A program made the position numbers and the translations under genes. Positions 34,845 through 62,754 of a stretch of DNA of 64,000 bases are shown here, one piece after another (position 1 is the first letter of the stretch; every line of letters starts with the position of its first letter). This stretch comes from an uncultured Phascolarctobacterium sp. (GTDB lineage Bacteria > Bacillota > Negativicutes > Acidaminococcales > Acidaminococcaceae): contig UQWU01000002.1 in assembly GCA_900544885.1 (NCBI GenBank), positions 23,057-87,056 on the forward strand, read 5' to 3'. Below the pieces are notes generated by a model that searched no databases, was not told the origin of the DNA, and saw only the letters and a list, made by a program, of their open reading frames with translations.

Positions 34845-36500
34845 ATGAGAGTTTTTCTTTTGGCATTACTTTTATGCTGTCAACTGATGACAGCGGCGGC
34901 TGCAAATATTCCTTTGATGCCTGTGCGTGATCTGAAGCCTGGTATGCAGGGTATTGGTAAAACAGTTATCAGTGGCGATACCATTGAAGAGTTTAACGTA
35001 GAAATTTTAGGTGTAACTGGTAATGAAGCTACAGGCTATAGTATTTTTGTACGTTTATATGGCGATTTGATTGATAAGGTTGGCGGTGTAGCTCAAGGTA
35101 TGAGCGGTAGTCCTGTTTATGTTGATGGACGACTGGTAGGTGCAGTAGCATTTGGCAAGGTATTTAACGATTCCCGTTATTGCTTTTTAACTCCTATCGG
35201 TAAAATGTTACCTCTGCTTGACGAACCGCGCGAGCTGCCTGAGGGATGGGTGCCTAAAGGAACTTCTTTGATGGCAGGTGGTTTTACTGATTATGGTTTT
35301 CAACATTTGCAGGAAAAACTTGCTCCCTTCGGCTTAAATGCTGTATCCAGTGGTGGTGTAGGCAGTTCCAGCGTGAAAGCATTAGAGCCGGGTAGTGCAG
35401 TAGGTATTGCTGTAATGCATGGTGATATGAACTTAGGTGCTTTAGGCACTGTTACTTGGACTGATGATGCGGGACATGTTTTGGCCTTTGGTCATCAGTT
35501 TATGCAAAGAGGTAATAGTAACTTCTTTATGAATAAGGCTTGGGTTCTAGGCGTTGTGCCTAACTTGCAAAGCGGCTATAAGGTAGGTAATATCGGTGAA
35601 GCAATCGGTTGCTTTAATCAGGACCGTAGCAGTGGCATTGGCGGTAGCGAGGGTGTATTACCGACCACTATTCCGGTTTTCGTTACTGCTAACGATAGTA
35701 ATCGTGGTCAAAGCAGTAGTGTTCGTGTACAAGTAGCAGAGGATGAAAAATTGTTGCCGACTGTTATTGATGCCGCTGTCGTTAACACTTTAAGCAAGAC
35801 TGTTGATCGTGCAGGTGGTGGTACTGCTAGAATGCATTTTACTATTACAGGTGTGGATAGTAATAAAAAACCTCTGACCATTGATAGAGAGAATATGTTT
35901 TACTCGAATGATGCACTGTTGAAAAATGTCAGTGGTGAATTAAGCGAAGCTTTGACTATTCTTATGCAGAATAAATTTGAGCATGTAGATATATATGGAA
36001 TTAACGTTGATGCACAAATCAGCGAGGATGTGCAGGTTGCAGAAATTCAATCATTACGTACAAAAAATAAACCAGTAAAGTCTGGAGAAAAGGTAGCTAT
36101 TGAAGTAACCTTGAAGCCGTATCGTGGTGAAGAATTTACTAAAACAGTGTATTTTAAAGTGCCTAAGGATCATCCGGGTGGTCAGCTAGCATTGAATGTG
36201 CGTGGCGGTAGCAGCATGGCTTGGGTAATGAATTTATTACGTAAGCAAAAGGATGAGGGAGTACCGGCACAGAAAAAAGATACTCGTCGTACCTTAAGTG
36301 ATTTCGTGAAAAGCGTAAATGATGCTGATCGCAATAATGAAATTATTGTTGACGTAGCAGCGACTCATTTTAACCCTGATGAAGTACAGAACGATGCAGG
36401 CTTAGCAGGTATGTTGCAGGGTTCTCCGTTTAAACAAAAAACTCTTTGTGATTTTATCGTAGACGGAGAAGCTGAATTATCTTTGAAGGTAGAAAAGTAA
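34845..36500 (+). CDS. Secreted peptidase S55 (SpoIVB-like) domain protein
   Basis: The protein has a signal peptide. The motif GMSGSPVYVDGRLVGAVAFG resembles the SpoIVB catalytic-Ser region. GHQFMQRGNSNF is also present. The protein is 551 aa. Confidence 0.5.
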   Translation: MRVFLLALLLCCQLMTAAAANIPLMPVRDLKPGMQGIGKTVISGDTIEEFNVEILGVTGNEATGYSIFVRLYGDLIDKVGGVAQGMSGSPVYVDGRLVGAVAFGKVFNDSRYCFLTPIGKMLPLLDEPRELPEGWVPKGTSLMAGGFTDYGFQHLQEKLAPFGLNAVSSGGVGSSSVKALEPGSAVGIAVMHGDMNLGALGTVTWTDDAGHVLAFGHQFMQRGNSNFFMNKAWVLGVVPNLQSGYKVGNIGEAIGCFNQDRSSGIGGSEGVLPTTIPVFVTANDSNRGQSSSVRVQVAEDEKLLPTVIDAAVVNTLSKTVDRAGGGTARMHFTITGVDSNKKPLTIDRENMFYSNDALLKNVSGELSEALTILMQNKFEHVDIYGINVDAQISEDVQVAEIQSLRTKNKPVKSGEKVAIEVTLKPYRGEEFTKTVYFKVPKDHPGGQLALNVRGGSSMAWVMNLLRKQKDEGVPAQKKDTRRTLSDFVKSVNDADRNNEIIVDVAATHFNPDEVQNDAGLAGMLQGSPFKQKTLCDFIVDGEAELSLKVEK

Positions 36501-38115: not shown

Positions 38116-39384
38116 ATGGGCAGCAGTGAAGTTAAGGTAGGTGCCTTTGCCATTGGCGGTGCTGTAGTTTTAGCAGGCATTATCACCTTTATGGGAGCCT
38201 TTTCTTTTGGTAAAAACGGCTATAAGCTGTATATAGATTATCCACGTGTCAGTGGGTTGATGCCAGGACATGTGGTACGTTATGCCGGTGTTAATGTGGG
38301 TACGGTTAAAGATATTCAGGTAAAGCCTGGTAAGGTTGCTGTTGTTGTGGAAATTAATGATGATATTAAGATTCCTCAAGGGGCAATATTTACCATTGCT
38401 GCTGATGGTATTATGGGCGAAAAATTTGTCAATGTAGTACCGCCTGCTAATCTTGGTCAGGGCTTTATTGCTGAAGACAGTACCTTAAAGGGCATCCCAG
38501 GTGGTGGCATGGAAGAATTCTTTGCTAATTCGGGAGATTTGATGAAGCGTGTTGATAATATCGCCAGTGCTTTTGAAAACGTTTTTGGTGATAAAGAAGT
38601 ACAGGAATCAATGAAAGACGGCTTCAAAAACATGCATGCTATTTCTGAAAATATGAATACTTTTACCAGAGTTATGGCGGAAACTGCTGTTAACAATCAG
38701 CAGGATATCAACAATATGATTCATCAAATGAATGAGCTCAGCCAGAGAATGAATAAAACGGCAGCACATATTGAAAGTATTACTGCTTCGGTAGATAATA
38801 ATGGACAAACTGGCCGAAATGTAGCAGCAATGGTAGAACATATGGCTAGCACCAGTGCCCGCCTGGAAAATATCGTACAGGTGCTGGAGGGGGTAGCCCA
38901 AGATCCTGCTACTAAGGAATCTTTAAAGGAAACATTAGTTAATGTTAAAGAAACCAGTGCTCATGCTAATAAAATCTTAGGAACACTAGCAGATCCTGAG
39001 GTTAGTGCTGACGTTAGCACCAGTTTAAAAGATAGTGATTGGCGTAGCAATTTAGGTTTAACTTTGAAACCTAGCGACAATGATTACTTGTATTTAGGTG
39101 GTTATGATTTGGGCAATGAAAATAAATTTGATTTTATTCTCGGTCATAAAATAGGCAATACTGGGCTGAGTATGGGAGCTATGCAAGGTGATTTTGGTGT
39201 TGGCTTGAGTTATGATTTTGGTAAATCTTTTAGTGTTTATTCTCAACTATATGATTTCGATGATACGAAAGTTCGCGTTGGTGGTGAATGGCATTTAAGT
39301 GATAATCTATCGCTTTATGGTGAATCTATGGATGTACGTGGTGACAGTAGTGATGCTTATGCTGGCGTAAGGACGTATTTCTAA
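38116..39384 (+). CDS. mlaD: MlaD (MCE domain) with a long helical region and a C-terminal beta-barrel-like extension
   Basis: The protein has an N-terminal TM helix and an MCE domain (YKLYIDYPRVSGLMPGHVVRYAGVNVGTVKDI). A helical segment of about 150 aa follows. The C-terminal part of about 120 aa is rich in alternating aromatic and Gly residues and ends in GVRTYF, a terminal Phe typical of OM beta-signals. Confidence 0.8.
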   Translation: MGSSEVKVGAFAIGGAVVLAGIITFMGAFSFGKNGYKLYIDYPRVSGLMPGHVVRYAGVNVGTVKDIQVKPGKVAVVVEINDDIKIPQGAIFTIAADGIMGEKFVNVVPPANLGQGFIAEDSTLKGIPGGGMEEFFANSGDLMKRVDNIASAFENVFGDKEVQESMKDGFKNMHAISENMNTFTRVMAETAVNNQQDINNMIHQMNELSQRMNKTAAHIESITASVDNNGQTGRNVAAMVEHMASTSARLENIVQVLEGVAQDPATKESLKETLVNVKETSAHANKILGTLADPEVSADVSTSLKDSDWRSNLGLTLKPSDNDYLYLGGYDLGNENKFDFILGHKIGNTGLSMGAMQGDFGVGLSYDFGKSFSVYSQLYDFDDTKVRVGGEWHLSDNLSLYGESMDVRGDSSDAYAGVRTYF

Positions 39385-39507: not shown

Positions 39508-40977
39508 ATGATTAAACATACATTAAATAAACGTTTATTAGTACTTTCTGCAGCTGTGACTATGCTCCTTAGCCAATCTGCTTTCGCAGGTGAAACTGTA
39601 GAACTTAATTTAGATGAAGCTATGCAACGTGCATTCGATACTAACCCTGCTATTAGCATTGCAGGTTATGGTCGCGATAGTGCCCGTGCTGCATATAATG
39701 CTGCACGTCAAAGTCGTGGTATTGCGATTACTGCAACTCATCAATCTCAACGTAGTGGCTTAGATGATGAAATGCCTGTTATCAGTAAAGTAACTGGTAT
39801 TCCTACTGGCGAATTCAGCAAAAACATTCATAATAACCATACTAATGCCATAACTGCTACCCTACCTATTTATACCGGCGGTAAATTAAGTGGTATGATT
39901 AAGCAAGCCAAAGCAGGTTATTTGTTTGCTGAAGAGGGAGTACAAAAAGCATATAACGATATGCGTTCTACTGTTACCAATAGTTACTTCAATATGCTGC
40001 AAGCTGATAATATGCAAAAATTAAGCGAAGAATCTGTTACTCGCCTGACTGATCATTTAAAGAACGTAAAAGCTCAATATGATGTAGGTGTTGTTGCTAA
40101 AGCCGACGTACTGCGCAGTGAAGTTGAATTGGCTAATGCTAAGCAAAATCTGATTCAAGCAGAAAATGCTTATCAAATTGCCGAGGCTAACCTGAATAAA
40201 GTAGTCGGTTTGCCGATGGACACTCAATTAAAATTAGATAATCTTTTGGTATATACTACTTATGAAAATGATTTACCGTACTGCTTGGATTATGCTGCAG
40301 AACATCGTCCGGAGCTGAAACAAGCCGCACAGAATGTAGAGGCTGCTAAAGGTGCGTTGCGTGTAGCAATTTCCGGTCATATGCCACAAGTTGTTGCCAG
40401 TGCAAGCCAAGCTTGGAGTAGTGAAAGTTGGCCTGGTGATGACAATGGAAATTGGGGTGTTGGTGTAAATGTCAGCATGAACATTTTCGATACCGGTGTT
40501 ACTCAATCTCATATCCATGGTGCCGAAGCTGATTTAGCTAAAGCTCATGAAACCTACAGAGATACAGTGGATGCTGTAAACTTAGATGTACGCTCCAACT
40601 ATCTGGGTCTGCGTGAAGCAGAAAAACGTATTGATACTACTAAACTGGCTGTTTCTCAAGCAGAAGAAGATTATCGTATCGCACAGCTGCGTTATATGAA
40701 TGGTGTAGGTACTAATACCGATGTATTGGACGCACAGGTTGCTTTAACTAATGCTAAAACCAACTATCTGCAAGCACTGTATGATTATAATACCTCTAAA
40801 ACAGCTTTGGAAACCGCTATCGGTGTACCAATGGCTTTTCCGACTAAGGTTAATGTAGAACCTGTAGAAGAAGAGAATACTGAAAAGGCAGAACAAGCAC
40901 CTGCTGAGACAGCAGCGCCGACTGCTGAAGAAGCACAAGCTCCTGCACAAGAGGCAATTGCTGAACAAGCTAAATAA
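39508..40977 (+). CDS. tolC: TolC-family outer membrane efflux protein
   Basis: The protein has a signal peptide. Two repeated OEP halves show the characteristic pattern (LDEAMQRAFDTNPAI...; LPYCLDYAAEHRPELKQAAQNVEAAKGAL). The Ala/Glu/Pro-rich C-terminal tail is low in complexity. Confidence 0.85.
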   Translation: MIKHTLNKRLLVLSAAVTMLLSQSAFAGETVELNLDEAMQRAFDTNPAISIAGYGRDSARAAYNAARQSRGIAITATHQSQRSGLDDEMPVISKVTGIPTGEFSKNIHNNHTNAITATLPIYTGGKLSGMIKQAKAGYLFAEEGVQKAYNDMRSTVTNSYFNMLQADNMQKLSEESVTRLTDHLKNVKAQYDVGVVAKADVLRSEVELANAKQNLIQAENAYQIAEANLNKVVGLPMDTQLKLDNLLVYTTYENDLPYCLDYAAEHRPELKQAAQNVEAAKGALRVAISGHMPQVVASASQAWSSESWPGDDNGNWGVGVNVSMNIFDTGVTQSHIHGAEADLAKAHETYRDTVDAVNLDVRSNYLGLREAEKRIDTTKLAVSQAEEDYRIAQLRYMNGVGTNTDVLDAQVALTNAKTNYLQALYDYNTSKTALETAIGVPMAFPTKVNVEPVEEENTEKAEQAPAETAAPTAEEAQAPAQEAIAEQAK

Positions 40978-40989
40978 ATATTTTAGATA

Positions 40990-41025
40990 AAGACCGATAG
41001 AGCAATGCTTTATCGGTCTTTTTTA
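40990..41025 (+). terminator. Rho-independent terminator after tolC
   Basis: AGACCGATA...TATCGGTCT forms a 9-bp stem followed by TTTTTT. Confidence 0.85.
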
Positions 41026-41162
41026 TAATAAATGAAAAATTTTTGTGCACTAAAGGAGGTTTTTACTTTATGTCGAATAAATAAAAGTCTAAGTATATTT
41101 ATTAGACAAAATATTTATGACTTTAATTATTGGACAAAAGAGAAGTTCTTGGTGGAGTTGCT

Positions 41163-44100
41163 ATGAAAAAATATCTACAATTTATCGGAATTTTATTTAT
41201 CATCTTGGCAGCAGGCTATGTTTTTTTAGTACATACTGTTATGCCTAAATATATACGTCAAATGCTGCCGCAAATTGAGGAGATGGCACCGGAATATATT
41301 AACGGTAGTGTTTCTATCGGTAATCTTACTTGGAATGGTGGCCTTAGTGCCGAAATTACTGATGTAACTATTAAAGATAACAACGGTGAACGAGTTGCTG
41401 AATTACCTCGTACTGTAGTTCATTTCCGCCCGTGGCTGGCGTTAGATAATCCGGCGAAAGCAGTAAGCCGTATCGAATTAATGCGTCCGCAGGCTTATCT
41501 GACTATGGATGACAATAAAAAATGGAATATGCAGCATTTATTAAAACCATCTGATTCCAAGGAAACTCCGTTCTATGGCTTGTTAGAGGTTACTGATGCT
41601 AATTTAAAGATTACGATGCCTGAAGGACATTGGAATTTTATCATTAATGGTAATATCAATGGCGGTGCGAATCCTAATTTTGCAGCTGATTTACAGATAG
41701 TCAGCGGTGTGGATCGTTTAAAGCTTACTGGTTTAGTTAATATGCAAGGCGAAGGAAAATTAACCTTAAAGGGTGATAAACTTGATTTGAAGGCGTATGC
41801 TCCTTTAGCAGAGCAATATGCTGCTTTGCAAAAATTACAGGGTGGCTTAGGCGAGATTAATGTTTTATACGAAAAGAAAAAAGATAAGCTGGAAATTTCC
41901 GGCGCTGTCGAAATAAAATCTGTGCAGGCTGAAGCAGAAGCTAGTGGCGAATTACATAAGATAAAATTAGATGGTACAGTTAAGGCTAATAAAAATCTTG
42001 TGTCGTTGAATAAGTTTGCGGTACGAGTTGATGAACAGCAGGTCCTGTTAGAGGGCGAAGCTGATTTAAATGATTTAGAGAATATTAAAGGCGAAGGTAA
42101 ACTTACTGCACCTAAATTAGCTTATGCAGGATATACGATTCAAAATTTGACAATTCCTGTAGAAGGCGATAAGCATACATTAATTATTCATGATGCTGCT
42201 ATGGAATATGGCGGCGGTAAAGTCGGCTTTAATGCGACTGCTGATTTAAAAGAAAAAGGTCTGACGGCTGATGCTGAATTGGTTAATGTTACCTATGCCT
42301 TAAATGATGATATAAAAAATGATATCCATGTCAGTGGTCAATTAGCATTAACTGCCAAAATGCATGAGGATAGGATAGCTGTACAGGCTGCAACACAGAT
42401 ATTGAATTTGGCATGGCATGATTTAAAAATTAATCAAGTTACATTAGATGGATATATCAACGATAATGGGTTAAATATTGATAGCTTTAGTGCTTTATCT
42501 GATGATGATGGCAGTTTAATGGCTAAGGGTACTGTGGCTAAAGATGGTGAATTAAATTTAGATGGCCGCATGGTCGAATTTCCCATTAATCCTATTTTAG
42601 ATATTGCTACAGGTCAACAAGGTAGCGGTTTATGTTCTACTGGATTTCATGTTGGCGGGACTATCAAAGCACCTGAATTTTCTAGCATTGTGCAATTAAC
42701 TAATGTTGATTTCTTAAATCAGAAGATTAAAGAAGCACATGGCTCTATCAGCTTGAAAAACAATATTCTGGAGATAAAAGACTTTATTGCCAATATGCAG
42801 CAGGGTGAGCATATTGTTAACGGTAGCATTGATTTAAATAAAGCTGAACCGTATTTTAATATGGATATTGAAACAAAGGGTGTACGTATAGAGCCTTTAA
42901 TGCAGCTTGTTGCTCCGACTGCTCCTGTTACAGGTAATCTGGATAATATTATGACTTTTCAGGGAACGATCAATCATCCTTATGTTTATGGTGAAGTCCA
43001 TGCTAGTGACGGTAGTGCAGCTAAGCAGCTGTTTAATAGTGTTGATGGGTTATATACTTACGAGGACGGCAAATTACAGCTGAAAAATTTTGAAGTAAAT
43101 GCTTTCTTAGGCCGTGTGATTTTGAATGGTGCTATGACTGCTGACCAACAGCTGAATTTTGAGCTGGAGACTAATGATGTTGATTTAGCACACCTGCCGA
43201 TTAAAGATGAAACTGTTGATTTAGATGGTAAGCTGGATGCTAAGGGTTATTTACAGGGTACATTAGCTAATCCGTATTTCCGTGGCGATGTTTCCAGTAA
43301 TGAAATCTCTATTAATGGTGAAAAGCTTACTGAGCTACAGGGTACCTTGGAAAGTAATGCTCGGGAGAAAAATAAATTTGATATCTCCTTTAAACAGCCT
43401 TATAAAGATGATCCGATTAACTATGGCTTATATAGTGCTAATTTAAATATCAACCTGACACAACGTTTTATCCAAGGTAAAATGGCTATGGTTTGGGGCG
43501 ATATCGGCGGCTTATTGCGTATTGCCCGTCAGGAATATGATATTAATGGCCTGATGCAGGGTGAAATGACCTTTAATCCGCAAGGTAAGGGTAGTGGTAT
43601 TCATATTGCTATAGATGCGGATAATGTAAAAATTCATGATTTGAATTATGCTCATATGAATTTTAAAGGCAGTATGCGTAAGGGTGTATTGTATTTTGAT
43701 GATGTTAAGCTACAGGAACAAGCGGAAGTTACCGATAGCGGTATTATTGCTGTAGGCGGCAATATAGATTTGCTCGGTAAAAAACTGAATGTAGAGGTTG
43801 CATCTGCTAAAGCAAATCCTGCTATTGTTACTGCTGTTATGACTGATCCGCCAGAAATAAAAGGCGAAATGGATATGCTGGCACAATTAACAGGTACTTT
43901 TGATAATCCGGAGGGTAATGCTTCTTTGTTGATTAATAATGCTTCTGTTGCCGGTGTCGGTATGGATTCAGTAACGGCAATGCTTTTCTTGAAGGATGAT
44001 AATATTAAGCTACAGCAGCTTATGGCTTCTAAGGATGCTTATAGCTTAAAGGCTTCCGGTGATATTCCTTTGGATATTTTCCGCTCTAAAGAAGAGCGTC

Positions 44101-45452
44101 GTAACAGTAATGCGCAAATGAATATCGTACTTGATTTGGATGAAGCTCGTTTAGGTATTCTACCCACAATGACGCCTTTAGTTGAATGGGGTGTTGGTGA
44201 TACCAAAGGTAAAATCCGTATTGCAGGTACATTGGAAGAGCCATTGCTTTTCGGTTCTATAAAAATTGCTGATGGTGCTGTTAAGGTAAAATATCTAGAT
44301 ACTGTTTTAGAAAATATTAATCTTGATGTTGCGTTCCAAGGCAATGAGGTGTTACTGCGTAATCTGTCTACTAAAATGGGCAAGGGTACTGTGGCGGCTG
44401 AAGGCAGCTATGCATTACATACAGGTGCTGATACTGCTTACAAGCTTCATTTTACTGCGAAAGACGCCGAAGTTGCTTCTGCAATCGTAAACGGACGTGT
44501 AAATAGCGATATTGAAATAGTGCCGCAGAAATATCTTGATTATAAAAACTATAATAAGGGTCAGGAGCCGACGGAACATTATCGTCCTGCAATTAAGGGT
44601 AATGTACGCTTAGATGATGTTACCATTAATATGCCGACAATTCCTCCGATGGGCGAAGGAGAAAGCAATATCGGCCTTGATTTAGTTGTTGAATTAGGTC
44701 CTAAGATCCATCTGTACAATAGCTATTTGTACGATATTTGGCTGAGTGGTGGTATGCATCTTAAGGGTAGCACTATGTACCCGATTATTGATGGTAAAAT
44801 CAAAGCAGATAAGGGCACTATTAAATATTTACGTACTGACTTTAAATTAAATAAGGCGTCGTTAGTTTGGGTAGATCCAGGCTCTTTCCTGCCTAATGTC
44901 AACCTGGAAAGCACTGCCCGCTTCAGCCGTTATAACATTATGATGAAAATAAACGGTCCTGTAAGTGAAATGGATTTGCAGCTTACCAGTAATCCGCCGT
45001 TGGAGAAAAATACGATTATCCGTATGCTGACACTGCAGCGTGAATCTGCAGGCAGTAATGAAGTAACTAGCGAGGATATGAATAACTTAATGGCCGCAGG
45101 TTTGCAAATGACTGTTTTAGGCGACGTGGAGATGTGGGTTAAACAAACATTAGGTTTAGACCAATTCCGTATTTACACAGGTAAGGTTCGTTCCGGTGTG
45201 GGCTTTGAAAGTACTAAAGATAGAAATCAGGAGCTGACGGAAGATGAAAAAAATCAATATAATGTGTTGATTAGTAAATATTTAACTAATAATTTCATGA
45301 TTGGCTATACTACAAGCTTTAATGGTATTGACAAAAGTATTTTCGGGCAGTACGATATTAGCAGACATTTAAGTCTTACCTATTCCAGAAGCTATGATTT
45401 ATCGGATAAAGCAGAGGATTGGTATGGCTTAGAGTATAAGCTTAGTTTCTGA
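41163..45452 (+). CDS. tamB: Translocation and assembly module protein TamB (AsmA-like, DUF490 C-terminus)
   Basis: The protein is about 1429 aa with an N-terminal signal-anchor (MKKYLQFIGILFIILAAGYVFL) and a long repetitive beta-rich periplasmic body. The C-terminal DUF490-like region ends ...WYGLEYKLSF. The RBS GGTGGAG precedes the ATG at 41163. Confidence 0.85.
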   Translation: MKKYLQFIGILFIILAAGYVFLVHTVMPKYIRQMLPQIEEMAPEYINGSVSIGNLTWNGGLSAEITDVTIKDNNGERVAELPRTVVHFRPWLALDNPAKAVSRIELMRPQAYLTMDDNKKWNMQHLLKPSDSKETPFYGLLEVTDANLKITMPEGHWNFIINGNINGGANPNFAADLQIVSGVDRLKLTGLVNMQGEGKLTLKGDKLDLKAYAPLAEQYAALQKLQGGLGEINVLYEKKKDKLEISGAVEIKSVQAEAEASGELHKIKLDGTVKANKNLVSLNKFAVRVDEQQVLLEGEADLNDLENIKGEGKLTAPKLAYAGYTIQNLTIPVEGDKHTLIIHDAAMEYGGGKVGFNATADLKEKGLTADAELVNVTYALNDDIKNDIHVSGQLALTAKMHEDRIAVQAATQILNLAWHDLKINQVTLDGYINDNGLNIDSFSALSDDDGSLMAKGTVAKDGELNLDGRMVEFPINPILDIATGQQGSGLCSTGFHVGGTIKAPEFSSIVQLTNVDFLNQKIKEAHGSISLKNNILEIKDFIANMQQGEHIVNGSIDLNKAEPYFNMDIETKGVRIEPLMQLVAPTAPVTGNLDNIMTFQGTINHPYVYGEVHASDGSAAKQLFNSVDGLYTYEDGKLQLKNFEVNAFLGRVILNGAMTADQQLNFELETNDVDLAHLPIKDETVDLDGKLDAKGYLQGTLANPYFRGDVSSNEISINGEKLTELQGTLESNAREKNKFDISFKQPYKDDPINYGLYSANLNINLTQRFIQGKMAMVWGDIGGLLRIARQEYDINGLMQGEMTFNPQGKGSGIHIAIDADNVKIHDLNYAHMNFKGSMRKGVLYFDDVKLQEQAEVTDSGIIAVGGNIDLLGKKLNVEVASAKANPAIVTAVMTDPPEIKGEMDMLAQLTGTFDNPEGNASLLINNASVAGVGMDSVTAMLFLKDDNIKLQQLMASKDAYSLKASGDIPLDIFRSKEERRNSNAQMNIVLDLDEARLGILPTMTPLVEWGVGDTKGKIRIAGTLEEPLLFGSIKIADGAVKVKYLDTVLENINLDVAFQGNEVLLRNLSTKMGKGTVAAEGSYALHTGADTAYKLHFTAKDAEVASAIVNGRVNSDIEIVPQKYLDYKNYNKGQEPTEHYRPAIKGNVRLDDVTINMPTIPPMGEGESNIGLDLVVELGPKIHLYNSYLYDIWLSGGMHLKGSTMYPIIDGKIKADKGTIKYLRTDFKLNKASLVWVDPGSFLPNVNLESTARFSRYNIMMKINGPVSEMDLQLTSNPPLEKNTIIRMLTLQRESAGSNEVTSEDMNNLMAAGLQMTVLGDVEMWVKQTLGLDQFRIYTGKVRSGVGFESTKDRNQELTEDEKNQYNVLISKYLTNNFMIGYTTSFNGIDKSIFGQYDISRHLSLTYSRSYDLSDKAEDWYGLEYKLSF

Positions 45453-45480
45453 TTTTTATAAATAACAAAGGAGCGTACGC

Positions 45481-46116
45481 ATGCTGCAGGAATATTTAGA
45501 AGAACTACGCAAAACACCTTTGCTTGAGCAGGATGAAGAACGCTTATTGTGGCAGCAGGCTGCTAAAGGAGATTTAAATGCGCATCAAAAGCTGATGACC
45601 GCTTATCAACCATTAGTTTTTAAAATTGCTTCTAGTTTCCGTCTTCCTGAGGCGGAAACTATGGAGCTGATTCAAGAAGGTATGGTCGGTCTTTTGGAGG
45701 CAGCCGAGAACTATGATTATAAACGACAAGTAGCTTTCAGCTTGTTTGCATCCTATCGTATCAAAGGCAGTATGTTAGATTATCTGCGTCAAAGTAATTC
45801 CAAGGGAGTACTGTATCTGGATAGTGAGATTTCTCGAGGCTTTACATTAAGTGAAGCTTTGCCGGCTACTGATGCTTCACCTACGGAAATGGCTGAACAG
45901 AAGCTTTTACAGGAAAAAGTGGCCCAAGCTATGGATCGGCTGCCGATGAAGGAACAACAGGGGCTGCAGGGTATGTATTTAGAGGATCAGACTGCTCAAT
46001 TTGTAGCTGATTCTATTGATGTTAGTCTTGGTCATGTTTATCGATTGCAAAAACAAGGTGTACGTCGTATTAGAGGTATGCTTTCTCGTTTCATACATGA
46101 TTTCAATAAAGATTAA
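45481..46116 (+). CDS. Sigma-70-family RNA polymerase sigma factor (group 3-like, FliA/SigB/sporulation-sigma-like size and domain content)
   Basis: The protein is 211 aa. Region 2 is QPLVFKIASSFRLPEAETMELIQEGMVGLLEAAENYDYKRQVAFSLFASYRIKGSMLDYLR. The region 4 HTH is LPMKEQQGLQGMYLEDQTAQFVADSIDVSLGHVYRLQKQGVRRIR. Confidence 0.8.
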   Translation: MLQEYLEELRKTPLLEQDEERLLWQQAAKGDLNAHQKLMTAYQPLVFKIASSFRLPEAETMELIQEGMVGLLEAAENYDYKRQVAFSLFASYRIKGSMLDYLRQSNSKGVLYLDSEISRGFTLSEALPATDASPTEMAEQKLLQEKVAQAMDRLPMKEQQGLQGMYLEDQTAQFVADSIDVSLGHVYRLQKQGVRRIRGMLSRFIHDFNKD

Positions 46117-46297
46117 ATTAATATAAAATGCTTATTAAGTATAAAATAAGCGAAAATTGAAGAAAAAACGCGTAATTCAGATAAAATTATGGATAATCTG
46201 CTAAAATGGCAAGTGAAAGATGCCTATGCCTGACGATTATAAAAAATATGATTGATTATTGTATTTTAGCGTGGTGATAGCAGAAAGGGGTATGTTT

Positions 46298-46795
46298 ATG
46301 ACGCAGCCAAGCCGCTCGGTTTCTCAACGTATTCGTACTGTGAAAAGCAGTCTTGATAATGCTGAACAGAGCTTTTTGGATAATAAAGATATCCGTGGTG
46401 AGCTGGATTTAATGCTTGCTGAAGCGGAGTTAAAAAATCTGCGCAGGAAAAAGGATTTACCCTGGAGCTGGAATCGTCATATTTTGGCTATTTGTGCAGC
46501 TTCCTTATTGGCAGTGGCCGGTCTGTCAGGCTGGTATATTGCTAAAGACCATTACCGTGAAGCTGCAGCAGCTAAAGCTAAGAATACTGTGACTAATTCG
46601 GTTTCGCCACAGCCAAGTGATTTACCGGTAGCTCAAGCTTCCATAACACCTCAAGCTGTGCAGACAAATATATTGGATAATAATGCCGATGTTAAACCTG
46701 CTCCTAAAAAAGCAGAAAATCGTGCTGTTATATCTAAAGCTGAAATGCACCAATTAGTGCAGTCGGCAAGAGTTGAACTTAGTAATTCGAAATAA
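46298..46795 (+). CDS. Single-pass membrane protein, candidate anti-sigma factor
   Basis: The ATG at 46298 follows AGAAAGGGG. The protein has a cytoplasmic part of about 60 aa, a TM helix (ILAICAASLLAVAGLSGWYIA), and a Pro/Ala/Gln-rich periplasmic part of about 90 aa. It lies directly downstream of the sigma factor gene. Confidence 0.5.
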   Translation: MTQPSRSVSQRIRTVKSSLDNAEQSFLDNKDIRGELDLMLAEAELKNLRRKKDLPWSWNRHILAICAASLLAVAGLSGWYIAKDHYREAAAAKAKNTVTNSVSPQPSDLPVAQASITPQAVQTNILDNNADVKPAPKKAENRAVISKAEMHQLVQSARVELSNSK

Positions 46796-46815
46796 CCCGC
46801 GAGGAGGAAATTCCA

Positions 46816-48798
46816 TTGAAAAAAAGAATGTTATGGCAACCGTTATCTGTAGGCCTGACTGCTATGATGTTAGCTATGCCTGCATATGCAGAAAAAGAAA
46901 ATACTGCAGTTCCGGCAACTCCGGAAACGGCTGCAAGTACTGTAGCTGCTAGTGAAGTAGCTCCGGCAGTAGAAAATGCTGCACCGGTAGGTCAAAAAGA
47001 AGTTGTTCCGGTAGCAGAGGCTAAAGCAGCTCCGGCTGAACAAGCTGCACCTGAAAAACAAGCTCCTGCACAAAAAGCAGAGAATAAATTGGCTCCGTAT
47101 ATCGGTAAAACTATTACCAAACAAATTATCAAAGGTAATAAGGTAGTACCTGAGGCTGATATCGCAGCTGTATTGAAAACTAAACCTGGTATGGCTTTTT
47201 CTGAAGCTGGCTTAACTGAAGATTTAAGTGCTATTTATGAATTGGGTTATTTCTATGATTTACGTCCGGAATTCAAAGTAGTTCCTGAAGGCGTACAGGT
47301 TATTTATAATGTTATGGAAAATCCTGTTTATAAAAGAACTGAAATTGTTGGTTCTACTGTACTGAACAAGAAAAATGCTGAAGCATTATTCACCATGGAT
47401 ACAGATAAAATCGCTAACTTGAGAGAAATCAATACTAGCGTACAAAAACTGGAAGAAGAATATCGTTCCAATGGTTATATTTTGGCTCGTGTAACTGATG
47501 TACACATGGAACAAGATGGTACTTTAAAAGTTACTGTAAACGAAGGAATCGTTGAAGATTTCAAGGTAAAAGGTAATGTTAAAACTAAAGATTATGTTAT
47601 TACCCGTGAAATGAAGTTGAAAAAAGGCGAACCTTTCAATGCTAAAGCTGCTCGTCGTAGTATGCAACGTATTTATAACTTAGGTTATTTTGAAGACGTT
47701 AATATTAAATTGAATCCTGGTCGTGAACCAAACTCTGTCGAAGTTGAAATTACTGTTGTAGAAATGAATACCGGTACTTTTGGTATTGGTGCAGGCTACA
47801 GTAATGCAGACGGTTTTGTAGGTATGGTTTCTGTTGGTGATAAAAACTTCCGTGGTACTGGCGATAAAATCAATATCCGTTGGGAATTCGGCGGCGAAGA
47901 TAATAAAAACTATGATTTCAGCTATACCCGTCCGTGGTTAGATGATAAAGAAACCAGTGCTACCATTAACTTGTACGATATCACTAACGAATATGCTGAC
48001 TATGATATCAATGGTGACGAAATTGCCCGTTACGACAAAAAACGTCGTGGTCAGGAATTGACCTTGAGCCGTAAAACTGATAATGAATTTATCAGCAACT
48101 ATATCACTTTGAAAAACCGTGATGATATTTACAAAGGTGAAGCTGACGGTTATGAAGGCGATAAAGATCAGTATTATGAACCTGGTTTTGAAAATAATAA
48201 AGATAAATATGAAGATTGGATGCCGAAAGATTATAAAGAACGTCGTGCAGAAAACTTCGGTGTTACCCGTAGTATCACTTTAGGTCGTATATTCGATTCC
48301 CGTGATAATATTTATGATCCCCATGAAGGTAAACGCATTGGTTATAGCTTAGAATGGGCAGGCTTAGGCGGTGACTTTGACTTTACCAAAGTAACTGCTG
48401 ATTATCGTTATTATTATCGTGGCGGCGGTGAAACTGTTTGGGCTTTGAATCTGGGTGCTGGTTATGCTCATGGCGATATGCCGCTTAGCCAACGTTTCTC
48501 TATGGGCGGTAGCGAAACATTGCGTGGCTATGAAGATGATCAATTCCGTGGTAACAGTATGTTAAAAGCTACTTTAGAATATCGTTTCCCGATTGTTAAG
48601 AAAGTACAAGGTGTATTGTTCACCGATAATGGTTATGCTTGGGATAAACGTCATGAAGACGAATTCGATTTAGGACTTTTGAAAAATAGTTATGGTGTAG
48701 GCCTGCGTATTAACTCTCCTCTGGGACCTGTAAAACTGGATTACGGCTACGGCGATGATGGCGGTAAATTCCACTTCAGCTTCGGTGGCCAGTTCTAA
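46816..48798 (+). CDS. bamA: Outer membrane protein assembly factor BamA (Omp85)
   Basis: The protein has a signal peptide, an Ala/Pro/Glu-rich linker, POTRA-like repeats and a C-terminal 16-strand barrel. The barrel region carries RGY and VRGF-type motifs and ends FHFSFGGQF. The TTG start follows GAGGAGG. Confidence 0.9.
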   Translation: MKKRMLWQPLSVGLTAMMLAMPAYAEKENTAVPATPETAASTVAASEVAPAVENAAPVGQKEVVPVAEAKAAPAEQAAPEKQAPAQKAENKLAPYIGKTITKQIIKGNKVVPEADIAAVLKTKPGMAFSEAGLTEDLSAIYELGYFYDLRPEFKVVPEGVQVIYNVMENPVYKRTEIVGSTVLNKKNAEALFTMDTDKIANLREINTSVQKLEEEYRSNGYILARVTDVHMEQDGTLKVTVNEGIVEDFKVKGNVKTKDYVITREMKLKKGEPFNAKAARRSMQRIYNLGYFEDVNIKLNPGREPNSVEVEITVVEMNTGTFGIGAGYSNADGFVGMVSVGDKNFRGTGDKINIRWEFGGEDNKNYDFSYTRPWLDDKETSATINLYDITNEYADYDINGDEIARYDKKRRGQELTLSRKTDNEFISNYITLKNRDDIYKGEADGYEGDKDQYYEPGFENNKDKYEDWMPKDYKERRAENFGVTRSITLGRIFDSRDNIYDPHEGKRIGYSLEWAGLGGDFDFTKVTADYRYYYRGGGETVWALNLGAGYAHGDMPLSQRFSMGGSETLRGYEDDQFRGNSMLKATLEYRFPIVKKVQGVLFTDNGYAWDKRHEDEFDLGLLKNSYGVGLRINSPLGPVKLDYGYGDDGGKFHFSFGGQF

Positions 48799-48815
48799 TA
48801 AGCGGAGCTTATTTT

Positions 48816-50087
48816 GTGATGAAGCTTAATAAGATTTTAATGTTTGCTGCAATGACCTGTGTGCCATTGCAGCATGCTTTTTCTGCACCGGTAACAAGTG
48901 TTGATGTACAGGTTATTGATGTTAATGCAGGTACTAGTCCTATACTTTTAGAGAAGATGAGTGCGAGTATGCAGGTTGTAGCTACGCAGCTTTTCGTCGA
49001 TAAGGATACTACAACTATTACTGCTGCGAAAGATGATTATATTCGTCTTTTGACAGAAATCGGCGATCGTGTTTTTACTGGCTATGAGCTTACTGCAGTG
49101 GATATGAACGTAGGTGGTAATCTAAGCATTGCCTTATATGCTCGTCCGTGGAGCTCCATTATTACCGAGCCGAAGATAGATTTGGAATTTTCCGGCGTAG
49201 AGCCGCAAACAGCATCTTTATTGCAAAAACGCATTCCGCAGCTTAAAGAAAAACTACGGCAGACTATCAGTGGTGCTTCTGTAGATGCCAGTGACTGGGC
49301 TGGTGGAGTTTTGCGTAAAATGGTCCGTGAGGAAATAGAACGTCAGCTGCCGGAATTTAAAGCTGCGGTGGATGTACTGCAGGAAAATAATCAAACTGTA
49401 GTACAAATAGTTATCTATCCTGTAGGACAATTAGTGCGCAATATCGATTATGAATTGCGTAGTGAGGCAGTACCTAATATACTGCTGATGAACATGAAAT
49501 ATAAGTATGACGGAGAGTGCGATAAGCTGCGCGGTCTGCCGTTGGCTTATATCAAGCGTCATAAGCAGGAATTAGAACAGATACTTACAGAAAAGCTTTT
49601 AAATGAGCCTGAGGTTAAAAATTTTAATTTGCAGCCTGTAGTAACTTTGACACCAGAGGCGGATTTAGGTGTTAATATTATGATAACTTCGGACGAATAT
49701 AAAATCTGGTTCGAGGGCTATGGTGATATTGGGCGAGATAGGAATAATTTATCTGGCAAAGCACATATAGGTAAATTCGTTTCAAAAAATGGTGAGCTTT
49801 TTGGTGAAGCTGAAGTTTTATTAGATGATGTAGAGTGGCGCTTTGCTCCTGGATATGCTCATTATTGGGGCAAGAGTACGTTTAGCTATATGCGTCGTAT
49901 TCCTCTTGCAGATAATGTTTATAAACTGGAATATAATCTTAGTCCTAAATGGCGTTTGCGTGCAGAGCATTTTTCTGGTGATGATCGAAATGAATTTGCG
50001 GTACGTTATCGTATCCATGAATTTCTAAGTGCAGAATACGTTTATGGTGGGGACGAACTTTATTTACAAATCATAGGAAATTTATAG
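48816..50087 (+). CDS. Secreted hypothetical protein (423 aa) of the OM cluster, with beta-strand-like alternating hydrophobic residues in its C-terminal third
   Basis: The signal peptide is MMKLNKILMFAAMTCVPLQHAFSA. It shows no recognisable catalytic motif and no SLH motif. The C-terminus (KLEYNLSPKWRLRAEHFSGDDRNEFAVRYRIHEFLSAEYVYGGDELYLQIIGNL) has an alternating hydrophobic pattern. Confidence 0.5.
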   Translation: MMKLNKILMFAAMTCVPLQHAFSAPVTSVDVQVIDVNAGTSPILLEKMSASMQVVATQLFVDKDTTTITAAKDDYIRLLTEIGDRVFTGYELTAVDMNVGGNLSIALYARPWSSIITEPKIDLEFSGVEPQTASLLQKRIPQLKEKLRQTISGASVDASDWAGGVLRKMVREEIERQLPEFKAAVDVLQENNQTVVQIVIYPVGQLVRNIDYELRSEAVPNILLMNMKYKYDGECDKLRGLPLAYIKRHKQELEQILTEKLLNEPEVKNFNLQPVVTLTPEADLGVNIMITSDEYKIWFEGYGDIGRDRNNLSGKAHIGKFVSKNGELFGEAEVLLDDVEWRFAPGYAHYWGKSTFSYMRRIPLADNVYKLEYNLSPKWRLRAEHFSGDDRNEFAVRYRIHEFLSAEYVYGGDELYLQIIGNL

Positions 50088-50093
50088 CTATTC

Positions 50094-50122
50094 TTGAAAG
50101 AATTGGTGTAGACTGTTATAAT
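50094..50122 (+). promoter_or_regulatory. Sigma-A-like promoter upstream of the skp genes
   Basis: TTGAAA is followed by a 17-nt spacer and TATAAT. Confidence 0.55.
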
Positions 50123-50175
50123 AAAATATATATGTTTATTTAATTTTATAGTCAAAGAAAGTAGGTATTTTAATC

Positions 50176-50661
50176 ATGATGCAGCAATTGCGTAATCCCA
50201 AAAATGTAAAAGTAATTTCCCTGTTTATTGCAGCTGTTTTTGTTCTGGGCTGTTTTGCACTGTCCTTCACTCAAAGCGGCTTCGGTAAATCTGCGTCTGC
50301 AGCTTCCAGTGAATCTGCAATCGGTGTTGTAAATTACCAAATGCTGATCGCTCAAAGCCCGGACCTGAAAAGTGTTGATGAAGCTATGAGAAAAGAAGTT
50401 GAAACTGCGCAAAAAGATTTTAATGAAAAAAGCAAGAACATGAATGAATCTGAAAAAAGACGTTTCTATACTCAAACTCAAGAACGTCTGCAAAATAAAC
50501 AAAAAGAATTGATGAATCCTGTTCTGAAAAAAATTGAAGAAAGCATTAAAAAAGTAGCAGATAAAAAAGGTTTGTCCGTAGTTGTAGAAAAAGCTACCGT
50601 AGTTTACGGTGGTGTTGACATTACCGACGAAGTTGCTAAAACTCTGCAATCTGCAAAATAA
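50176..50661 (+). CDS. skp: OmpH/Skp-family periplasmic chaperone (copy 1)
   Basis: The 161-aa protein has a signal peptide and a coiled-coil body. It ends with the Skp-like SVVVEKATVVYGGVDITDEVAKTLQ. Confidence 0.8.
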   Translation: MMQQLRNPKNVKVISLFIAAVFVLGCFALSFTQSGFGKSASAASSESAIGVVNYQMLIAQSPDLKSVDEAMRKEVETAQKDFNEKSKNMNESEKRRFYTQTQERLQNKQKELMNPVLKKIEESIKKVADKKGLSVVVEKATVVYGGVDITDEVAKTLQSAK

Positions 50662-50724
50662 GAACCTTGGACAGGCCCTGTGAAATAAAAGGGCCTTCTT
50701 TACTGTAAAACAAAGGAGAAACAC

Positions 50725-51642
50725 ATGGCTATAACAAGGATGGGGAAAATCAGTGCTGTTCTTGTGGCTGCTATGCTTATTTCTGCTTGCGGTGCCAATA
50801 TTCATGGGCAGCAGGAAAAAATAGCTGTTGTCAATTGGGATAAGGCACAGGCGGAACATCCTCAATATACTAAACTGGAAAAAGGTGAAAAGATACTGAA
50901 GGATTTGTTGCTGAAACGCAAGGGTCAGGAACAACTGGCAAAGGTACAGATGGGAAGTCTGCAAAAATTGCGTAATTTACGTCAGTTAAGTCAGCAAGGA
51001 TATTTGCAGGCAGAATTTAATACCAAAATGGTAGAACAGCGTGAGCGTGAAAATGTCAAGCTGCGTAAATTTGTAGATACTGTAGAGGCGGAAGCCGAAG
51101 CAAAGGTTGCTGTCAGACGCAAAAGTGTAGAGGATAGCTATCAGCTGCAGCTTTTCAATTTGCGGGCGGTGCTTGCCTCAGTAAAAATGAAGCCTGAGGA
51201 AAAAGCTAAGCTACAGGAAGAATTGCAGCAGGTACAACAGAAGCGTGCCGTGGAAATGCAGGCTGTAAATATGGAAAAACAAGCATACATTGATGCTAAG
51301 GTTAAACCGTATGTAGCAGAAATGCAGCAGCGCTTGGCTGAGGCAGCACAGGAGTACCATGCAGATATTGCGCAACAGCTGAATGCACGTGAGGGTAAGG
51401 ACCGGAAGCTTCTGGAGGAAGCCTCCCCTGCTTTAAATAATGCATTAAGCATTATGGATAAAGAAATTGATAAGCAGCAGGAAAAAAATGATAAACTGCG
51501 TAAAAAAATCAATAACGATATCGAAAGCAGTGCGATTAAGCTGGCACATGAACGTGGTTATACAATAGTATTTAATAAATATAAGGTTAATCTTAAAGCT
51601 GATGATATCACTGATGCAGTGGTTCAGGAATTAAAAAAATAA
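50725..51642 (+). CDS. OmpH/Skp-like coiled-coil periplasmic protein (copy 2, extended)
   Basis: The 305-aa protein has a signal or lipoprotein-like N-terminus (LISAC). It has a long Gln/Glu/Lys-rich coiled coil. Its C-terminus (GYTIVFNKYKVNLKADDITDAVVQELKK) resembles the Skp C-terminus. Confidence 0.65.
   Translation: MAITRMGKISAVLVAAMLISACGANIHGQQEKIAVVNWDKAQAEHPQYTKLEKGEKILKDLLLKRKGQEQLAKVQMGSLQKLRNLRQLSQQGYLQAEFNTKMVEQRERENVKLRKFVDTVEAEAEAKVAVRRKSVEDSYQLQLFNLRAVLASVKMKPEEKAKLQEELQQVQQKRAVEMQAVNMEKQAYIDAKVKPYVAEMQQRLAEAAQEYHADIAQQLNAREGKDRKLLEEASPALNNALSIMDKEIDKQQEKNDKLRKKINNDIESSAIKLAHERGYTIVFNKYKVNLKADDITDAVVQELKK

Positions 51643-62750: not shown

Positions 62751-62754
<4 letters not shown>
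60223..62754 (+). CDS. waaA-lpxK: Fusion ORF: Kdo transferase WaaA/KdtA (N-terminal about 430 aa) plus tetraacyldisaccharide 4'-kinase LpxK (C-terminal about 400 aa)
   Basis: The N-terminal part has GASVGE, AGSTHPGEE and GGHNVLEPAA, which are GT30 motifs. The C-terminal part has VISIGNITVGGTGKTP (LpxK P-loop) and ILNRGYRS. It is one uninterrupted 843-aa ORF. Confidence 0.8.

Follow-up and report, generated by a model that had tools for sequence, protein, structure and literature searches.

A sigma-70-family gene and its SonB-like neighbour between tamB and bamA: a candidate regulatory pair in the outer-membrane cluster of diderm Firmicutes

What does a sigma factor gene do in the middle of a gene cluster for outer-membrane biogenesis? 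The question is raised by a stretch of 64,000 nucleotides from an uncultured Phascolarctobacterium sp. (contig UQWU01000002.1 of assembly GCA_900544885.1), here called the window, of which the part from ~31 to 64 kb is a classic outer-membrane (OM) cluster of diderm Firmicutes. The nearest proteins in the databases reach 99-100% identity to those of the window, and the relatives that carry a name are Phascolarctobacterium sp. Within the cluster, a gene for a sigma-70-family factor and a gene for a small membrane protein are located between tamB and bamA. This placement was proposed in the initial annotation, and the Pfam matches of the flanking genes, all on the + strand, support it. The genes concerned are:

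41130..45452, + strand: tamB, 1440 amino acids (aa) (Pfam TamB PF04357, 3e-35; also DUF748 and AsmA)
45481..46116, + strand: gene for the sigma-70-family factor, 211 aa (Pfam region 2 and region 4)
46298..46795 including the stop codon, + strand: gene for the SonB-like partner, 165 aa (ribosome-binding site and homologue starts)
46816..48798, + strand: bamA, 660 aa (Omp85, 2.5e-51; POTRA, 2.7e-32)
48816..50087, + strand: positional orthologue of sonA, 423 aa (position after bamA and size)

Our tentative answer, drawn from comparative sequence analysis, is that the sigma factor and its partner may constitute a conserved two-gene regulatory module in which the partner, corresponding to SonB of Acetonema longum, acts as the anti-sigma factor. 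We hold this proposal with slightly less confidence than doubt. It is made plausible by the adjacency of both genes, the topology of the partner with a cytoplasmic N-terminus (N-in), its conserved cytoplasmic domain, the joint absence of the genes from Veillonella parvula and a mirror-tree signal.

The identity of the sigma factor as a member of the sigma-70 family, as initially annotated, is confirmed. Pfam assigns Sigma70_r2 (PF04542, E = 4e-15, residues 38-105) and Sigma70_r4 (PF04545, E = 1.5e-7, residues 150-198), hence the protein has both the region for core binding and -10 recognition and the helix-turn-helix region for the -35 element. The generic superfamily model TIGR02937 is passed with 92.7 bits (cutoff 42.9), and region 1.2 gives a weak match of 18.6 bits (cutoff 22). 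The AlphaFold2 (AF2) model (pLDDT 81.6) consists of a sigma2 bundle extending to about residue 104, a linker of ~30 aa with low confidence, and sigma4; it contains no sigma3 domain. The parts of the protein are:

residues 2-31: region 1.2-like helix
residues 38-105: sigma2
residues 105-133: low-confidence linker
residues 134-210: sigma4

The modelled succession of sigma2, linker and sigma4 without sigma3 is the two-domain architecture of extracytoplasmic function (ECF) sigma factors. The initial statement that the protein is not obviously ECF therefore does not extend to the architecture; it does stand for sequence and fold. The ECF equivalogs of NCBIfam are not passed (SigW, 50.8 bits with a cutoff of 209; PRK12531, 51.6 bits with a cutoff of 353) and rank below the models for FliA, RpoS, RpoH and SigB/F/G. 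The neighbours found by Foldseek and by sequence search of the PDB are sigma32, SigA, SigD, SigB, sigmaS, SigH, WhiG and FliA, and not ECF factors. Judged by sequence and predicted fold, the nearest relatives thus appear to be group 1-3 sigmas, despite the ECF-like architecture. Region 2.3-2.4 reads RIKGSMLDYL (family consensus RIRGRML), its counterpart in WhiG is RIRGAMIDEL, and it is unlike the WWIRQAITR of primary sigma factors.

The generic model TIGR02937 is the only NCBIfam model passed by the protein, and the same outcome is obtained for all 35 representatives of its family; the highest-scoring models below threshold (FliA/WhiG, RpoS, RpoH, SigB/F/G and sporulation sigmas) all remain far below their cutoffs. 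A phmmer search against 1.84 billion cluster representatives yields 36 clusters (50% identity) at E <= 1e-30, whose full-length members have ~195-220 aa and are 33-52% identical. Beyond these clusters the scores fall off into fragments and generic sigma-70 proteins, and the sigma factor is therefore a distinct family outside every named subfamily, combining an ECF-like architecture with a group-3-like region 2. A profile search collects 5969 members, the named ones from Megasphaera, Pelosinus, Sporolituus, Dendrosporobacter, Pelorhabdus and Veillonellales metagenome-assembled genomes (MAGs). Their database annotations disagree, ranging from "sigma-70 family" to "FliA/WhiG", "sporulation-specific" and "sigma-E".

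Such labels invite the explanation that the sigma factor is simply one for flagella (FliA) or for sporulation (SigE/F/G/K/H), misplaced or misannotated. FliA_WhiG is indeed the top subfamily among the sub-threshold NCBIfam models, WhiG is the best PDB sequence match, and some members carry the JGI label 'sporulation-specific sigma factor'. The model scores nevertheless leave this identity effectively refuted, and we assign it only a minimal probability: FliA_WhiG (TIGR02479) reaches 85.1 bits against a cutoff of 189.6 and matches region 2 alone, and the SigE, SigK, SigF and SigG models score 50-68 bits against cutoffs of 250-460. The protein also has no sigma3 domain and no N-terminal extension that could serve as a pro-sequence, and no flagellar or sporulation genes adjoin it in the window. 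The firm flagellar or sporulation classification that was initially named as a refuting outcome has thus not materialized.

A more distant relative is found on a phage-like contig (L088, 8001..8666). It is 40% identical to the sigma factor of the window, has a short N-terminal extension and is followed by a two-transmembrane protein unrelated to SonB. The contig has many small open reading frames (ORFs) without Pfam match, an RNA ligase/kinase-phosphatase gene and a gene for a pentapeptide-repeat protein. P0247 and P0263, two of the family representatives, may be grouped with this relative.

How well is the location of the pair conserved? On the sigma side we scanned one genome per GTDB species with a 10-sequence alignment as query and obtained 552 loci with a sigma relative; the synteny counts refer to the best 80 of these, all from Acidaminococcaceae. 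As far as the contigs extend, the order tamB-sigma-partner-bamA-sonA-skp-lpxD is found in 80 of 80. The same order is seen around distant sigma relatives of eight lineages, namely in Megasphaera, Sporolituus thermophilus, Dendrosporobacter and a Firmicutes MAG, as well as in the candidate division GAL15, two Bacillota MAGs (one with 67% GC) and a high-GC contig. On the partner side, 80 metagenome loci were retrieved by the pattern GEL[DN]L[ML]LA[EQ]: the sigma gene is directly upstream in all 65 loci with enough upstream sequence, and bamA is directly downstream in all 64 with enough downstream sequence. Conservation of synteny, raised as a question by the initial annotation, is therefore strong on both sides. 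We note that the Phascolarctobacterium-type locus also occurs in GTDB records titled Bacteroides sp., Escherichia coli, Segatella copri, Bacteroidaceae and Fusicatenibacter (L016, L021, L025, L029 and L055), which are likely mislabelled or contaminated bins.

The locus of V. parvula is informative by what it lacks. Its TamB, BamA and Skp proteins are encoded by the consecutive locus tags Vpar_0526, 0527 and 0528-30 (PMC5491611), and SonA and SonB, which occur in 36 Negativicutes, are reported missing from V. parvula and Acidaminococcus fermentans (PMC13018214). Taken together, the consecutive tags and the absence of SonA and SonB imply that the sigma factor, SonB and SonA are jointly missing from the V. 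parvula locus.

The second gene of the pair requires a correction of its start. The longest ORF (46259..46795) opens at a TTG at 46259. Since a ribosome-binding site (AAAGGGG) is located 7 nt before the ATG at 46298 and all homologues start at the equivalent methionine, ATG 46298 is almost certainly the true start as judged from the sequence, giving a protein of 165 aa. Its predicted parts are:

46298..46480, + strand: cytoplasmic N-terminal domain, residues 1-61 (alignments, AF2 hairpin, bias of lysine and arginine)
46481..46543, + strand: transmembrane helix, residues 62-82 (hydrophobic segment; AF2 helix 58-99)
46544..46720, + strand: periplasmic linker, residues 83-141, rich in proline, alanine and glutamine and predicted to be disordered (variable; pLDDT 40-45)
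46721..46795, + strand: C-terminal amphipathic helix (RAVISKAEMHQLVQSARVELSNSK) and stop codon (conservation; AF2 helix 147-162)

The sole hydrophobic segment starts at residues 60-70 in all of 85 unique partner homologues. None of them has a signal peptide, or any hydrophobic stretch within the first 35 aa, and in 84 of the 85 the N side is richer in lysine and arginine (median 5, compared with 1 on the C side). Because of the single segment, the missing signal peptide and the charge bias, the partner is predicted to be an inner-membrane protein with a cytoplasmic N-terminus and a periplasmic C-terminus. The initially described single-pass protein with a short cytoplasmic N-terminus (~61 aa) behind the sigma gene is thus recovered across the homologues. 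The cytoplasmic domain is the best-conserved region of the protein, both within the genus and across orders. It spans ~60 almost invariant aa with the motif L..AE.SF....RGELDLMLAEAEL, that is L..AE.SF....RGELDL(M/L)LA(E/Q)AE, and is modelled by AF2 as a two-helix hairpin (helices 5-28 and 30-52). The C-terminal helix is nearly invariant in the genus, and S..QMQ.LVR.A.K.LRG is kept across orders. A cytoplasmic domain that binds a conserved protein of the same compartment would be expected to show such conservation, and the partner has the general layout of membrane-anchored anti-sigma factors, i.e. a single-pass N-in protein encoded beside a sigma gene.

The partner is not a new protein by name. 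In A. longum, the gene directly upstream of bamA has been named SonB (F7NM24) and, with a transmembrane helix predicted for it, labelled a "putative OM lipoprotein", and the gene directly downstream of bamA encodes SonA (F7NM22), a 10-stranded barrel with three POTRA domains (PMC13018214; Nat Commun, February 2026). By position (upstream of bamA, with sonA and skp downstream) and by its transmembrane helix, the partner in the window is the SonB orthologue; its counterparts in three Sporomusales-like loci (L082-L084) are homologous to it. Likewise, the 423-aa ORF behind bamA is the SonA orthologue by position and size (A. longum SonA has ~426 aa). This ORF has no Pfam or NCBIfam match, and an ORF at the same position is kept behind bamA in all related loci.

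In two respects our description departs from the published one. Whereas A. longum SonB was called an OM lipoprotein, our prediction for the SonB-like proteins considered here places them in the inner membrane, N-in, with a cytoplasmic domain that is conserved. We tested the lipoprotein reading with the lipobox [LVI][ASTVI][GAS]C closing an N-terminal signal peptide and reject it. A lipobox-like motif (LAGC) exists in 26 of the 85 partners, at residues 60-72, and is always found at the start of the hydrophobic segment, not at its end; the motif is missing from the three Sporomusales-like homologues. Furthermore, PMC13018214 is silent on a sigma gene beside SonB, whereas here the sigma gene always precedes the SonB-like gene. 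The word 'sigma' is absent from that paper and from the 2016 eLife paper in which the OM cluster was defined, and full-text literature searches for sigma and anti-sigma factors in diderm Firmicutes returned nothing relevant. In the searchable literature, neither the sigma family nor its constant location within the OM cluster appears to have been described; the partner already has a name, but with another interpretation and without mention of the sigma factor.

The transcriptional arrangement of the pair is less simple than its adjacency. The sigma gene starts 28 nt past the tamB stop codon with its own ribosome-binding site and probably belongs to the tamB transcription unit; the single strong intrinsic terminator nearby (40989..41021) is located between tolC and tamB, and none is found between tamB and the sigma gene. 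An AT-rich gap of 181 nt separates the sigma stop codon from the partner start, so that the two genes are not translationally coupled, and bamA starts 20 nt past the partner stop codon. In the measured loci of Negativicutes the gap between sigma gene and sonB has 128-374 nt, in GAL15 and the high-GC lineages 14-33 nt. Terminator-like hairpins occur in 6 of 80 unique intergenic regions between the two genes, and none in the window. Without a consistent terminator, read-through from the tamB-sigma unit is possible. An Rfam scan of 40900..50300 returned nothing credible, hence there is no riboswitch or small RNA in the gap. Two conserved features are located there:

46192..46197, + strand: (G/T)ATAAT(C), a conserved block (an alignment of 17 Phascolarctobacterium sites has the consensus nnnATAATnA)
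46213..46241, + strand: promoter-like element consisting of GTGAAA (46213..46218), a 16-nt spacer and GATTATA (46235..46241), ~57 nt upstream of the sonB start

The first of these precedes the -35-like hexamer by ~15 nt. No -35 hexamer that would go with it is apparent, and it may represent either the -10 of a second promoter or a site for a regulator. The second is the more specific. Across Phascolarctobacterium the element takes the form GTGAAA-N16-GA(T/C)T(A/T)TA, with conserved hexamers and a variable spacer. In 1.15 Mb of related loci, the strict pattern GTGAAA-N16-GAyTwTA is found 32 times upstream of the partner gene, and outside these sites the + strand has no match and the - strand two; the 64-kb window contains a single occurrence. 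In other orders the GAyTATA block is kept and the -35 region is more variable: Megasphaera has GAGAAA-N17-GATACTA, and the element of Succiniclasticum is equally readable as TTGCCA-N17-TATAAT. The element agrees with the shared promoter predicted for sonB-bamA-sonA-skp1 in A. longum (PMC13018214).

Which sigma factor would use this element? Its GAAA/GAT composition and the conserved G at the first position of the -10 bear on this question. Promoters of the sigma28 class have the form TAAA-N15-GCCGATAA, and we infer that the sonB element recalls this class and not sigmaA promoters. A sigma28-like element would fit the FliA/WhiG-like region 2 of the sigma factor.

On this basis the following circuit can be proposed. 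The sigma factor would be made together with TamB, from the end of the tamB transcription unit, and the cytoplasmic two-helix domain of SonB would hold it at the inner membrane. The periplasmic tail of SonB, via its terminal amphipathic helix, would report the state of the BamA/SonA/TamB/Skp machinery. Upon release, the sigma factor would transcribe sonB-bamA-sonA(-skp) from GTGAAA-N16-GATTATA, which would raise the insertase capacity and at the same time remake the inhibitor, resulting in negative feedback as in the analogous systems sigma28-FlgM and sigmaE-RseA. Within this circuit we infer the binding of the sigma factor by SonB, the sensing step and the sigma factor that uses the sonB promoter.

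A mirror-tree analysis of 103 non-redundant loci is in line with the first of these steps. The divergence of the SonB N-terminal domain is best explained by that of the sigma factor (standardised coefficient 0.71), with a partial Mantel r of 0.515 (p <= 0.003) for the sigma factor, and of -0.19, 0.26 and 0.06 for BamA, SonA and Skp1, respectively. The periplasmic C-terminal helix also tracks the sigma factor best, hence the signal is not specific and its support for the pair is weak.

Several further observations weigh against an anti-sigma role of SonB. As initially remarked, the partner has no recognizable anti-sigma motif: searches with Pfam, NCBIfam, PDB profiles and Foldseek yield no anti-sigma domain, and zf-HC2, RskA, RsgI_N and RseA_N have no match at E <= 1. 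The best matches obtained are all at chance level (DUF6477, 0.04; the transmembrane region of PBP5, 0.5; phage needle coiled coils). Residues 1-60 contain neither cysteine nor histidine, which precludes an HxxxCxxC zinc motif. We also considered an RsiG-like hairpin binding cyclic di-GMP (c-di-GMP) and reject it, as the motif E(X)3S(X)2R(X)3Q(X)3D is absent from the partner sequence. Since a separate promoter-like element is present in the Negativicutes gap, sonB gives the impression of opening the bamA operon and not of being second in a sigma operon; moreover, the element could be a weak sigmaA promoter with 4 of 6 matches per hexamer and a 16-nt spacer. In the only published description, SonB is a putative OM lipoprotein that works alongside BamA (PMC13018214). 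Finally, an abundant lineage (a cluster of 411 sequences, ~40% GC) has the sigma gene behind tamB without an adjoining sonB or bamA (L085, 8001..8636; L172, 10001..10636). Its order is S55-mlaEFD-tolC-tamB-sigma; a terminator and a thrS leader come next, and neither sonB nor bamA is present within 6 kb. The initial reading is thus sustained for the sigma-70 factor, the N-in partner and the place in the OM cluster, with the anti-sigma role as a plausible hypothesis.

Several of these observations would be expected if SonB belonged to the BamA/SonA/TamB machinery as a structural or accessory part of the envelope, without any control over the sigma factor, an explanation to which we give roughly one chance in three. 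SonB could then be a tether or chaperone that is anchored in the inner membrane and reaches across the periplasm, or the OM lipoprotein of the Acetonema paper; the sigma factor would be regulated otherwise, and the genes would be neighbours through a shared ancestral OM cluster. An accessory role agrees with the promoter-like element of SonB and its distance of 20 nt from bamA, with the conserved periplasmic helix, with the missing anti-sigma signature in profile searches and with the L085/L172 lineage, which keeps the sigma gene without an adjoining SonB. It also agrees with the finding that SonB, BamA and SonA, with their shared predicted promoter, are co-expressed and up-regulated during germination of A. 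longum (PMC13018214). However, conservation of the protein is highest in the ~60-aa cytoplasmic domain, which a purely periplasmic or OM role leaves unexplained, and the lipoprotein variant in particular is contradicted by the topology and by the position of the lipobox-like motif in the 26 of 85 partners. Co-immunoprecipitation in A. longum recovered no stable BamA partners (PMC13018214), and the adjacency of SonB and sigma gene in 65 of 65 loci likewise speaks for a link between the two.

A different view concerns the sigma factor itself. It might be a general alternative sigma factor of Negativicutes, serving growth phase, germination or stress, with a regulon largely unrelated to the OM and a position that is merely frozen ancient synteny. 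We consider this unlikely. The view draws on the candidate promoter motif, for which neither a position weight matrix nor the strict pattern finds a second copy in the OM cluster: the 64-kb window has none, nor do the flanks of the 80 loci, hence no wider regulon is visible, which also counts against the circuit proposed above. The 40%-identical homologue on the phage-like contig implies that the family can work outside an OM context, and the automatic annotations are inconsistent ('sporulation-specific', 'FliA/WhiG', 'sigma-E'). On the other hand, the position between tamB and sonB-bamA is kept as far as GAL15 and high-GC Bacillota despite rearrangements of the cluster elsewhere, and V. parvula seems to have lost the sigma factor along with SonB and SonA. 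The sigma factor is also present in Phascolarctobacterium and Megasphaera, which are non-sporulating, non-motile genera.

A further gene of the cluster may bear on the sigma-SonB pair:

34845..36500, + strand: gene for a SpoIVB-like S55 peptidase (Peptidase_S55, 2.5e-14) at the head of the OM cluster

In the protein of the window the model match is limited to residues 21-114, and the remaining ~430 aa are outside of it. Two of the eight distant lineages lack the mla-tolC block (L090 and L091) and have the S55 peptidase gene close to tamB, either directly upstream (L091) or one gene off (L090); its coordinates are 1347..3359 in L090, 1862..3574 in L091 and 1..1287 in L172. As a speculation, the peptidase is a candidate for a site-1 signalling protease of the sigma-SonB pair; the link does not go further because V. 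parvula keeps the S55 protein without the pair. At its most far-reaching, the idea is that the sigma factor, SonB and the S55 peptidase together guard OM assembly in diderm Firmicutes as an ancestral checkpoint. This checkpoint would be related by evolution to the SpoIVB-dependent sigmaK checkpoint of sporulation, or would have been its precursor. We regard the idea as improbable, more so than a general sigma factor. In such a checkpoint, SonB would tether a sigma28-like sigma without sigma3 at the inner membrane, with its tail engaged by TamB, BamA and SonA; cleavage by the S55 peptidase, followed by intramembrane proteolysis, would free the sigma factor to drive bamA-sonA-skp.

Several known systems share part of this logic. 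One is SigmaE-RseA (with DegS/RseP) of Proteobacteria, which likewise consists of a sigma factor and a single-pass N-in membrane partner, and in which sensing of outer-membrane protein assembly raises bamA/skp-type genes, as proposed here. However, sigmaE is a canonical ECF factor co-transcribed with rseA, whereas the sigma factor considered here has a FliA/WhiG-like region 2 and is followed by a gap that contains a promoter-like element. Unlike RseA, the partner has no RseA_N or other anti-sigma domain, and the pair is seated inside the tamB-bamA locus.

With respect to region 2, the closest relatives in sequence and structure are the sigma28 factors FliA and WhiG (RIRGxM..L motif). Their inhibitors FlgM and RsiG are helical and often separately transcribed, partly from a sigma28-dependent promoter, and FlgM is a checkpoint on the completion of an envelope machine, analogous to the role proposed for SonB. 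The differences are that the sigma factor considered here has no sigma3, fails the family cutoff and has neither a flagellar nor a developmental context, and that SonB is membrane-anchored, whereas FlgM is secreted and RsiG binds c-di-GMP; the RsiG repeats are absent from SonB.

In its layout SonB resembles the class II anti-sigmas (CnrY, NepR) and RsgI-type proteins, with a cytoplasmic helical domain of ~50-60 aa, one transmembrane segment, an extracytoplasmic sensor and no zinc motif. It has no detectable sequence or profile similarity to CnrY, NepR or RsgI, the corresponding sigma factors (ECF, SigI) belong to other families, and RsgI and CnrY are co-transcribed with their own sigma factor. 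The SpoIVB-SpoIVFA/SpoIVFB-pro-sigmaK checkpoint of Bacillus, finally, has its counterpart in an S55 peptidase gene, a sigma factor and a membrane protein within one cluster; unlike pro-sigmaK, the sigma factor of the window has no pro-sequence, and SpoIVFB and BofA are absent from the locus.

In full, the OM cluster has the following content. Its 5' part consists of murA, mbl, a gene for a NAGPA/AMIN protein, the S55 peptidase gene, mlaE, mlaF, a long mlaD, tolC and tamB; the middle part extends from tamB via the sigma gene, the membrane-protein gene, bamA and the 423-aa ORF to three skp genes; the 3' part consists of lpxD, a lipid A acyltransferase gene, lpxC, fabZ, lpxA, lpxI, lpxB, msbA, a kdtA-lpxK fusion and kdsB. 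Four further features of the window are:

38116..39384, + strand: long MlaD, 422 aa, with a C-terminal extension past the MlaD domain; homologues carry Pfam Helical_needle and Aq_493_lipo, which fits the transenvelope MlaD of V. parvula and A. longum
60223..62754, + strand: a single 843-aa ORF in which the Kdo transferase (KdtA/WaaA) is fused to the lipid A 4'-kinase LpxK
25475..27301, + strand: a 608-aa ORF of the atp operon, comprising the C-terminal half of delta/OSCP and the complete alpha subunit
50170..50964, - strand: a 264-aa ORF antisense to the skp genes, of low complexity and rich in phenylalanine and leucine, almost certainly not a gene

In the atp ORF, residues 7-96 match positions 82-172 of the delta/OSCP model, and no N-terminal half of delta is visible in the gap of 94 nt behind atpF; the ORF could represent a fusion, a truncation or a frameshift.

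In the searchable literature we found nothing on the regulation of OM biogenesis or on envelope-stress sensing in two-membraned Firmicutes (Negativicutes, Limnochordia-like lineages, GAL15). The sigma factor amid tamB and bamA is a concrete candidate regulator, kept in nearly every sampled lineage, and the system was overlooked because V. parvula, the model organism, appears to have lost the sigma factor, SonB and SonA together. The same organism thereby offers a clean background for reconstitution. The view of SonB shifts from an OM lipoprotein aiding BamA to a predicted inner-membrane protein with a conserved cytoplasmic domain. If SonB is indeed the anti-sigma factor, the diderm Firmicutes would have built an envelope-regulating pair from a non-ECF sigma factor and a new anti-sigma domain; if the checkpoint involving the S55 peptidase also proved true, control of OM biogenesis would be linked to endospore signalling in the Firmicutes' ancestor.

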